Shown here: positions 12,001 through 15,000 of the stretch, piece after piece
How positions within the stretch are numbered: position 1 is the first letter of the stretch
Layout of the letters: each line of letters starts with the position of its first letter
Assembly: GCF_054482525.1 (NCBI RefSeq)
Contig: NZ_CM137006.1
Length of the DNA: 64,000 nt
Direction: 5' to 3' (one strand)
Program-made: the position numbers

Positions 12001-15000
12001 ATTGCTCTACGCTTCTCTCTGTAGAACACCTGTCTTCGGTATTTTGGCGCAAAAACTATGTGATATTTACAGTTCCATCGGGTGTGCGCTAAGCTCTTTT
12101 CGTTCCCCATTGGGACCCCCTTTTGATTTCTTGTTTGACACTTGCAGTTGCCAGACCGCAAGGTGTTTTAACAAATCAAAAGGGGTTTTAATAACTGGCT
12201 TAAAGCTGAAAGCTTTCCGGAACCCCCAGCCTAGCTGGGGGTTTTCTGTGCACAAAAACAACGGGCGTGCCATACGCCCGTTTCAATACTTAACGCACAT
12301 GTGTTTTGGTTTAGTCATCATCCGGTTATATGTATTTTAGCCAGGAATGGGTTAAACCATTCCTATATAACTAAAAAATTGAAACCTTATTCTCATGTCA
12401 TGCTTATATTCGTCATTATCGTTATATAAAAAGGCCAACCATAATGTTTAGCAAATTGGCACAAAGTAGTATAAAGGCTATGTTTTAATTACAGGATGTT
12501 CAGTCATTTGAATGTATAACATTTTAGCTAAACAAATCTAAAACGAAGTGAATAATTTAATGTTTTCACTAAATCTCATTTTGTTTAATATCTATCGAGA
12601 TTTCTTGCTTTAAATTTTGTTTTATATAAACAATGGTTTTAATTTTTAATTAATTTGTTTTTTTGAGGGGGTAATATACTCATATGCAAAATCAAGAAAT
12701 AAACATCCTAATGAACCATATTAAATACCGTGGGATAAGACATAACAAATGAAGTGGATAGTAATTGACACGGTAATTCAACCTACATGCGGTATATCTT
12801 TTTCAGCCATATGGGGTGATATGAAAATGATCATCTGGTATCAACCTACTATATTTCTCACTCCTGGAAGTATATTTACACCGGTTAAGTCTGGTATTAT
12901 CTTTAAGGATAAAGAATACCCTATTACTATTTATAACATCACACCATTCAACAAGGATTTATGGATTTTACTCAAAAGCAGTCAAGAGTGTCCTCCAGGA
13001 GAAAGCGAAATAACAAATAAATGTTTACATAATAGTTGTATTATAAAAATATGCCCATATGGACTCAAGTAATGGGCTTCATATAAATATGCTCGACATG
13101 CTATTAATAATATCCACATAAATAAAACAACGGGCGTGTTATACGCCCGTTTCAATATTTAACACATGTAGAGATTACATGTTCTTGATGATTGCATCAC
13201 CAAACTCGCTGCATTTCAGCAGTTTAGCACCTTCCATCAGACGTTCGAAGTCATAGGTTACGGTCTTGGCGTTGATTGCGCCTTCCATACCTTTAACAAT
13301 CAAGTCTGCGGCTTCAGTCCAGCCCATATGGCGCAGCAGTATATAAAAACCATGAGTTCAACTCATTGATATTTAATGATAAAAATCATTTTATTGTCTT
13401 TTTATTAGCCAAAATCAACTTTATTCAACCGTTTGATTTCATTGACGTTCGTTTTTATTTTGGGGAAAGATTTTCTCTACCATTTATATCAAAATTGCAA
13501 GTCTACATTTTATTAACATCTCAATACATGTGAGGCCTTGCAAGCCATTGCTAGACCTTATGTGTCTCAGTTTTGTCCCACTACGACCTGCACAGCAAAT
13601 AAGAAAATAGCGGTGATATCAAACAGTACAGAAGTCTTTTTTCTTTCAAATGGAGATACTGATTAACCCGTTTAATTGTACTCCTCATGGGTAATGTTAA
13701 GGCACAGGAACCAAATCACTATTGTGAATTTAATTTCACTATAGTAAATTTGATAACTCGTTTTGTATCTCAAGACACAAGCAACGACCACTTTAAGGAA
13801 GATAACATGTTAAAAATCAGAATGTCGCGACCATCTGAAGCACCAGAAATTATCCAAATTTGGAAAAATTCCGTTGATGCCACACACGATTTTCTTACAG
13901 CCCATGACCGGCAGGAGATTGAAAAAGAAGTTGTCAGCTTTTTTTCAGAAACCCCTGTGCTGGTAGCAACAAACCAGGAAGATCAGCCACTAGGATTCAT
14001 GTTTTTGCATGAGGGACATTTAGAGGCTCTTTTTGTTGATGCGTCAGCTCGCGGACTTGGCGTCGGGAAACATCTGATCTCACATGCGCTGGCACTACAT
14101 CCTGATCTAAGCGTTGATGTAAATGAACAAAATCATCAAGCTGTAGGCTTTTATCAACATATGGGCTTTAAACTTTCAGGACGTTCCGAGCGGGACAATC
14201 AAGGCAGACCCTACCCTCTATTACATCTTTATAAGGCAATGTGACATGATAATTTTAGGAGAATTACATCATGGATTTTTTTGGCTGAAAGCGACAATGT
14301 AAGAACAACTCTGGCCGCTATCTGGGTTTCTCATTTGGTACTCGCTGGCAAAGGTAAGAGCAAGACAATCACCGGCTTGTAAATGATGAGTCTGATGATT
14401 GACTCGAAAATCAAGGCTGCCGCTTAACATCCATAGAGTTTGTCCAGAAAGATGCTCATTTGCAGAGGCAGGGATAGTCAATTGCCCCATAGGGGGGATT
14501 TCAACTTTTATTAGTTCCGGACATGCACCCGCTGGGGACAAAGACCAGCGGGTAATGCCTGTTTCTTCATCAATCCAATGTTGTTGCTGGTCAGCCAAAA
14601 GTACAAGTGAATTCTGTTGCATCTCAAGCTCTGCAAAAAGCTTTGATAGCGTAATATTCAGTGCATTAGCTAACCGACTAAGTATTGTTGCACTGGGGCT
14701 TGAAGTGCCTCGTTCAACTTTGCTGATCATCGCCTGACTGACACCAGATCGTTGGGCAAGCTCTGTAACAGTCAAGTTTCGAGACTTTCTGAGCTTGAGT
14801 AACAAACGTGCAATATCGCTATCGACTATCTGATTTTTAGCTCTTTTATCCATTCTTCTCCCCTCTTTCACCGACCTGATTATGCCATTACATAAATTGC
14901 GATTAAATACATGATTTTACACGTCTCAAATGCATTTTTTCTATACGTTATAGCTTTAGAGTAAGAGCTGGTAACTTCAACTTCCTTATTTGGCACATAA

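Follow-up and report, generated by a model that had tools for sequence, protein, structure and literature searches.

The anti-adaptor gene iraM is enclosed, in a 64,000-nucleotide stretch of NCBI RefSeq assembly GCF_054482525.1 (contig NZ_CM137006.1; the whole stretch is hereafter the window), by two direct repeats of the intrinsic terminator of icd, while a third copy follows the intact icd gene at the other end of a resident prophage. Our analysis suggests that the two repeats, which we designate T3 (outer) and T2 (inner), are probably successive generations of one terminator, left at this site by elements that integrated into icd, and that iraM would be the stranded cargo of an older, lambdoid element of this kind. 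The evidence that carries this reading comes from a rare E. coli haplotype in which the outer terminator still runs into icd codons and phage genes still lie beside the iraM homologue. The features on which the argument turns are listed below by position and strand.

11384..11494, plus strand: ymgL small open reading frame (ORF) and chromosomal flank (mapped from the E. coli C RefSeq annotation)
~11543..12255, minus strand: insertion sequence IS200C (tnpA at 11652-12110; delimited by empty-site comparison with E. coli C and Nissle)
12254..12302 (49 nt), minus strand: T3, outer copy of the icd intrinsic terminator (pattern search, terminator call, fold)
12303..12748, plus strand: upstream/promoter region of iraM, including the ymgK mini-ORF (GC ~25%)
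12749..13072, plus strand: iraM, anti-adaptor of RssB, PF11183 (ORF; 91-93% identity to IraM clusters; phrog_4407, E 2e-48)
13124..13169 (46 nt), minus strand: T2, inner terminator copy, behind icdC (pattern search, terminator call, fold)
13175..13338, minus strand: icdC pseudogene, 164 nt from the 3' end of icd, displaced when the present prophage entered (ORF 13175-13327; icd homology ends at 13338)
13339..61523, no strand assigned: present-day prophage in icd, ~48 kb
61524..61569 (46 nt), minus strand: T1, phage-borne terminator copy, now terminating intact icd
61575..62825, minus strand: intact icd (ORF; last 164 nt supplied by the prophage)

A search of the whole window for the hairpin sequence, allowing ≤3 mismatches and with 100 shuffles as control, returned exactly three plus-strand matches, at 12257-12294 (3 mismatches), 13126-13163 (0 mismatches) and 61526-61563 (0 mismatches), against an expectation of 0 in the shuffles. 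An earlier note on this DNA had placed the copies after intact icd, after icdC and at 12255..12300, with coordinates that proved accurate to within 1-2 nt. T1 and T2 do not differ in sequence, and each lies 5 nt from a stop codon, that of intact icd for T1 and that of icdC for T2. T3 matches T2 at 43/46 aligned positions, differing by two loop substitutions (CC for TT), one C/T, one extra A and a 2-nt insertion; its 9-bp stem (AACGGGCGT/ACGCCCGTT) carries the loop GCCAT on the plus strand. Both T2 and T3 are predicted intrinsic terminators on the minus strand, the sense strand of icd, with 9 pairs (6 of them G-C), a 5-nt loop, a T-rich tail and folding energies of -17 to -18 kcal/mol, and their likeness reaches past the stem-loop into the A-run and ~20 nt of spacer. 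They are direct repeats spaced by 869 bp, with iraM and its upstream region between them at a GC content of 25-33%, in agreement with the same note's description of copies ~870 bp apart enclosing an AT-rich iraM and its promoter. As that note had also remarked, the third copy lacks icd coding sequence: none was detectable to the right of T3 in the window, the local alignment scoring no better than shuffles. The right flank of T3 (GTTTTGG..TCATCAT), considered as a match to the integrase-side arm repeats of the present prophage, gave no significant similarity, and element-type arm sequence is absent beside T2 in the window and in E. coli C. A dispersed intergenic repeat of the REP/ERIC kind was rejected, with only three copies in 64 kb, all of them icd-linked; in K-12 the copies all fall within the icd-e14-iraM interval, and the junction query matches 1-4 places per genome. 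Rfam matches over T2 were weak and attributable to chance, the STnc490 RNA of IS200 being the only one above threshold in the scan.

The repeats are not a product of the prophage now resident in icd. E. coli C, with an intact and prophage-free icd, has the order ymgL-T3-iraM-T2-icd and no IS200, and the T3-T2 repeats are independent of the present prophage; in Nissle 1917, conversely, the order is ymgL-T-icdC, the terminator being single and iraM absent. Of 5426 complete E. coli genomes, 3934 carry the iraM cassette, 1037 a continuous one-copy ymgL-T-icd(C) junction without iraM, and 164 a window-like arrangement with IS200; the remaining ~440 were unclassified. The locus is therefore a presence/absence polymorphism of a unit consisting of one terminator copy plus the iraM cassette. 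The earlier note had reasoned that an unoccupied icd alongside iraM and both copies would speak against an older integration; such a strain exists in E. coli C, but because only independence from the present prophage follows from its layout, the older integration is not refuted by it. The iraM cassette diverges by ~6% between lineages, as do its flanks. Eight iraM-cassette matches were on records labelled as plasmids.

A rare third haplotype, which turned up during a search for ycgX orthologues, occurs in 19 of the 5426 genomes. In E. coli 2013C-4282 it forms a 6.3-kb island between ycgX and icd (locus L147, 8150-14530), with the order bluR, ycgX, a diverged ymgL region, the outer terminator, a YmgB/AriR-like gene, an iraM homologue (iraM'), trkG, an IS5 fragment, a 455-residue ORF, the inner terminator and intact icd. 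In three loci (L142, L146 and L147), the outer copy passes without a gap into the spacer of icd, then a stop codon that has mutated, then the final four codons of the gene (ATC AAG AAT ATG); the alignment of TCAGTACTTAATAGGTATAGCGTTAACATATTCTTGAT with TCAATATTTAACACATGTAGTGATTACATATTCTTGAT has 28/38 identical positions, including all of the final 13, and its score of 31 exceeds the shuffle maximum of 26, with 0/1000 shuffles reaching it. The iraM' gene is 79% identical to iraM at the nucleotide level (74/107 residues), its upstream region 73%, and it has its own terminator at the place equivalent to T2. An arm of the e14 attachment type precedes the inner copy, 80-86% identical to the K-12 e14 arm and to phage-borne arms of Citrobacter. 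Over 1.7 kb, trkG and its upstream sequence are 89.5% identical to induced lambdoid coliphages, whose late operon has trkG after Rz, and the island retains a C-terminal fragment of the Rz spanin (Rz'); the 455-residue ORF gave weak PHROG matches. Read from the inner copy outward, the sequence of arm, 455-residue ORF, IS5 fragment, Rz', trkG, iraM cassette, icd fossil and outer copy is colinear with a lambdoid prophage in the orientation of the present one, with the iraM cassette at the cargo end. Because icd codons follow the outer copy and because an e14-type arm and the phage genes trkG and Rz' are present, we take the rare island, on its sequence, to be a decayed lambdoid prophage integrated at icd. 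These same features lend support to the idea, already put forward in the earlier note, of an older icd-targeted integration with iraM as its cargo. No recognisable integrase gene was found in the 6.3-kb island, and this island and the integrase-less T3-T2 interval are consistent only with a decayed element. In a subtype of the rare haplotype (L141, L143-L145), ymgL and the outer terminator were lost through a ~435-bp deletion.

The position of T2 suggests that it may also end the iraM transcript; iraM' has a terminator of its own at the equivalent place. As to T3, any present role it may have could be to insulate the iraM promoter from ycgX-ymgL read-through or to terminate antisense transcription.

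An alignment of the two iraM-bearing haplotypes (A2) relates the common to the rare layout. The common haplotype has the ymgL flank and the outer terminator as in the rare one, and this flank is contiguous with the outer copy in every haplotype having such a copy; T3 and the rare outer copy also have in common the variant TACTTAA, which distinguishes outer from inner copies. What the common haplotype lacks is a ~215-nt segment that holds the icd codons, the ariR-like gene, and everything from the iraM 3' untranslated region (UTR) to the inner copy. On the simplest reading, T3-iraM-T2 would be a further-reduced version of a remnant of the rare type, a link for which we rely on homology (73-79% at the nucleotide level) and shared position.

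We surmise the following history, which as a whole we consider probable: T3 and T2 would be two generations of the intrinsic terminator of icd. Members of the e14 and phage-21 families, which enter icd at its 3' end, bring along the last ~165 bp of the gene with a terminator, each integration pushing the resident unit of terminator and icd 3' end outward and supplying a new one. Starting from an ancestral layout ycgX-ymgL-T-icd, a lambdoid element would have entered icd with the AT-rich iraM cassette, complete with its own promoter, as cargo at its far end. The element would then have decayed until the common haplotype kept only the ~820-bp iraM cassette, with deletions of the displaced icd fragment by the outer terminator and of the DNA between the iraM 3' UTR and the inner terminator giving rise to T3-iraM-T2. 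In the strain studied here, a further prophage would have made the inner unit into icdC plus T2 and added T1, and IS200C would have inserted after T3 independently, because IS200 lands immediately downstream of intrinsic terminators. We infer that T3 is the original chromosomal terminator of icd, displaced by the ancient integration, and that the ancient element was probably a lambdoid one.

Several observations weigh against this history: 1) the common and rare cassettes diverge by 21-27% at the nucleotide level, far above the within-species norm, which may reflect separate acquisitions; either the two haplotypes split long ago or they stem from related but separate integrations; 2) no icd-like coding sequence lies beside T3 in the window or in any inspected genome of the common haplotype, and the ORFs read in the T3-T2 interval include no integrase or phage gene, nor does the interval hold an arm; 3) no intact phage was found with true iraM beside an attachment site, the 91-99% matches in IMG/VR being prophage calls that overrun the chromosomal gene; 4) no outgroup species with the ymgL-icd interval was found, homologues of BluR and YcgX elsewhere lying in different contexts, and the iraM-less alleles could be either ancestral or products of T3 x T2 recombination. 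In about 30 of the IMG/VR contigs classed as viral, true iraM lies ~1.1 kb from one end; prophage-calling software seems to carry the limits of icd prophages past icdC and on into the chromosomal iraM-ycgX region.

The absence of icd sequence after T3 is what a different event would predict, namely that the iraM cassette was inserted in or beside the terminator, for example by site-specific recombination or by single crossover of a small circle carrying a terminator-like sequence, such that the terminator was duplicated, icd was never split and the icd-codon fossil of the rare haplotype records an unrelated event. In the common haplotype, 5 nt separate the end of the repeat from the icd stop, the empty allele carries a single copy, and the 21-27% divergence between the haplotypes would also fit. 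We nonetheless consider this scenario unlikely: T3 shares its position, its flank and the TACTTAA variant with the fossil-bearing outer copy, alignment A2 relates the two haplotypes by a simple deletion of ~215 nt, a recombinase or circle-forming element for such an event is neither known nor was one found, and all documented integrations here have icd itself as their target. Far less probable still is that the hairpin is a reused or convergent terminator module, or a dispersed repeat, in which case the repeats would hold no historical information. All copies are indeed predicted intrinsic terminators, with a conserved stem and a variable loop, as such a module would be; their similarity, however, goes far beyond the stem-loop, into the A-run and spacer, both in the window and in K-12 the sequence is confined to the icd locus, in the rare haplotype it leads on into icd codons, and T3 sits on the minus strand with no gene to terminate. 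The earlier note had kept the reused module as an alternative, which loses its footing on these grounds. There is next to no chance that T3 is part of IS200 or was introduced or generated by that element: T3 does touch the left end of the element in the window, and a second strain has IS200 at the same place, but E. coli C and K-12 carry T3 without IS200, these empty-site alleles refute the proposal, and the ends of IS200, as defined by 20 distinct sites and a 707-bp anatomy, abut different hairpins elsewhere.

A separate question is polarity. It is quite possible, though short of probable, that iraM-plus is the ancestral state in E. coli and that the one-copy alleles of the Nissle type arose by T3 x T2 recombination, as losses rather than as the original state; this concerns polarity only and is compatible with the serial integration that we favor. 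The cassette is flanked by 46-nt direct repeats, it is old, because its ~6% divergence between lineages matches that of its flanks, and the icd-proximal unit has demonstrably been overwritten by phage-borne variants in one-copy strains. Against such deletions, none of five one-copy alleles (Nissle, JNE120442, SK1144, EcPF40 and A13) has a hybrid copy combining the CC loop with the icd-side flank. A more speculative extension, which we hold to be doubtful in all its parts together, would make the icd terminator a "staircase" recombination module to which each icd-targeting phage adds a copy, with cargo cassettes stacked in between; recombination between copies would then delete or swap cassettes, and the presence of the RpoS-stabilising iraM would be a reversible polymorphism at the level of the population, driven by the 46-nt repeats.

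As for the element that touches T3, IS200C faces T3 with its left end and, on the minus strand, lies in the T-tract behind the T3 hairpin; it carries the Rfam RNA STnc490 at 12120-12243 (146 bits). The filled site differs from the empty sites of E. coli C and K-12, where T3 is present and IS200 is not, by exactly the element. To the window we added JNE120442 and 18 sites from left ends in IMG/VR contigs, for a set of 20 distinct insertion sites, and in 20/20 a strong hairpin with a T-run, of unrelated sequence, stood immediately before the left end on the IS strand, with mean flank folding energies of -16.3 kcal/mol on the left and -4.8 kcal/mol on the right. Because all 20 sites follow some terminator hairpin, the abutment with T3 reflects generic targeting: IS200 inserts directly downstream of intrinsic terminators in general, and its contact with T3 is incidental. 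This placement 3' of host terminators matches a recent large-scale survey of the IS200/IS605 family (bioRxiv 10.1101/2025.07.22.666184). It is conceivable, though doubtful, that the structure of terminator hairpins is what IS200 recognises, in single-stranded target DNA. We also considered T3 as the terminal sequence of IS200, a possibility the earlier note had named as fatal to its proposal, and rejected it, since other copies of the element abut unrelated hairpins and T3 occurs in alleles free of the insertion sequence. The alternative that the hairpin is an IS200 target holds in the general sense that any intrinsic terminator serves, and not as a preference for the icd hairpin; of the IS200 copies elsewhere, those from IMG/VR lie next to unrelated hairpins and that of JNE120442 at the same T-tract. 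The iraM-less strain JNE120442 carries this second IS200 at the icd-terminator T-tract, in an insertion apparently independent of that in the window. We considered whether JNE120442 could be a T3 x T2 deletion derivative of the window lineage; with flanks 98.5% and 95.8% identical to the window and an IS junction that differs, the comparison was uninformative. E. coli 20AH011 (NZ_AP043959.1) has two IS200C copies within the ycgX-icdC interval. In its ~710-bp length (707-bp anatomy), single tnpA, left-end terminator hairpin and STnc490/art200 antisense RNA, the window element shows no differences from IS200 as described for the IS200/IS605 family (PMC4513863).

In E. albertii, E. whittamii, Escherichia sp. 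E1V33 and Citrobacter, the TT-loop hairpin stands behind icd or behind fragments of icd borne by phages. A hairpin scan of species representatives gave mostly chance matches and missed the E. coli type strain ATCC 11775 despite an exact match there, so absence from that scan is uninformative. Lambdoid phages of the phage-21 type carry the last ~165 bp of icd with the terminator, and on the window their homology sets in precisely at the left edge of T2 (attP homology from 13122); the phage 21 record itself is annotated "ICDH-like protein ... | terminator". The icd terminator borne by e14 in K-12 has a different, fully compensated stem (AACGGGAGC/GCTCCCGTT). In the one-copy strains SK1144, EcPF40, A13 and Nissle, both the icdC fragment and the spacer that separates the hairpin from the icd stop codon are mosaic, resembling those of Citrobacter or E. 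albertii phages; because these spacers are mosaic with phage-borne versions, the icd 3' end and its terminator appear to have been repeatedly overwritten by phage-borne copies. T3, shielded from icd, drifts instead of being overwritten; in K-12 it is degenerate, with a mismatched stem, a folding energy of -11.4 kcal/mol and z ~0, its fold being no better than those of shuffles. The observations on the e14-borne and T3 copies of K-12 refer to positions 1875-1990 and 17960-18020 of the K-12 locus.

The relatives of iraM point to phage cargo as well. All four other types of IraM paralogue that we examined (IraL, a gene of Stx2 phages that lies just after stx2B, one type from E. albertii and one further type) are cargo of lambdoid prophages, in antisense orientation and placed between the gene for the Q antiterminator and that for the holin. 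The iraM-like genes of Stx2 phages resemble iraM in the coding region alone (71% at the nucleotide level), and a search for flank homology between them and the iraM cassette found none beyond it. No further phage remnants were detected in the common haplotype by tblastx. iraM may be likened to the morons, or "grounded" prophage cargo, described in PMC6379469: it is AT-rich (GC 25-33%) and would be self-contained, with a predicted terminator downstream (as iraM' has its own), its homologues are antisense lambdoid cargo, and it would have survived the loss of its phage. It differs in that true iraM was not found in an intact phage, phage locations being those of the four paralogue types and of iraM' in a prophage remnant, and in that iraM' lies at the end of the cargo distal to the attachment site and not, as the paralogues do, in the slot between Q and holin. 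Expression of iraM is reportedly PhoP-dependent. Its neighbour ycgX belongs to the lambda p78/ybcV accessory family, a homology already noted by Tschowri et al. 2012, and its product is 44% identical to those of lambda-type phages; the closest homologues of YcgX outside E. coli (70%) are encoded in lambdoid prophages, with Nu1 on one side and the lysis genes on the other. In Escherichia sp. E10V10, a gene for a YcgX homologue of 77% identity stands alone beside yedEF near fliDST, a stranded DUF1398 copy outside any prophage.

Integration of e14 and phage 21 into icd is long established (Hill, Gray and Brody 1989, as summarised in PMC6379469). Those systems have the same target gene, and there too the element brings the 3' end and terminator of icd, with the displaced 3' end surviving at the far end as the icdC pseudogene; T1 and T2 of the window and the K-12 layout are textbook cases. 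T3-iraM-T2 would differ in being one generation older: the displaced icd fragment, the integrase and the phage genes are gone from the common haplotype, in which the terminator repeat is the sole betraying trace. The event is of an ordinary kind, of which the iraM locus is a clean example. IraL of uropathogenic E. coli and RssC of Salmonella (Hryckowian et al. 2014, PMC4045071) belong to the same family as IraM and resemble it in their variable presence among strains and their location on horizontally acquired DNA; by our analysis, IraL lies between Q and the holin gene of a prophage. Hryckowian et al. also assign iraM to e14 ("on the e14 prophage") and describe it as variably present; in the K-12 sequence, iraM lies outside e14, beyond icdC, and it also occurs in strains with no prophage at icd, which corrects that statement. 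If our reading holds, iraM, a well-studied regulator of RpoS, acquires a concrete origin as prophage cargo stranded at the icd integration hot spot, and its absence from about a quarter of E. coli genomes would be explained. A vanished prophage can leave no scar other than a short terminator repeat, which may be useful in annotating old integrations elsewhere, and the locus adds a clear example of IS200 directly behind host terminators. Current concepts are unchanged by these findings, the locus being a tidy case study of a known process in which serial integration at a hot spot is followed by prophage decay and retention of cargo. In the literature searched, neither the terminator repeats nor the icd fossil had been described.

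Other features of the window lie to the left of the iraM locus and inside the present prophage.

Left part of the window, left of ycgX, in plus-strand order: bluF, bluR
10927..11331, plus strand: ycgX (DUF1398), left neighbour (ORF; phrog_413, E 1e-41)
60319-61461, plus strand: prophage integrase gene, at the icd end of the prophage (ORF)

The prophage of the window was searched for an IraM paralogue of its own, and none was found. Its icdC-proximal end (13687-16304) carries cargo-like genes for a GNAT acetyltransferase, a helix-turn-helix/cupin regulator and an OmpT-like outer-membrane protease. Its icd end holds GTTTTGGGGAAG arm repeats; at 61472-61510, after the integrase stop and before T1, GTTTTGGGG(A)A(A)G is repeated three times in tandem, and these repeats are presumably arm-type binding sites of the integrase of this prophage.

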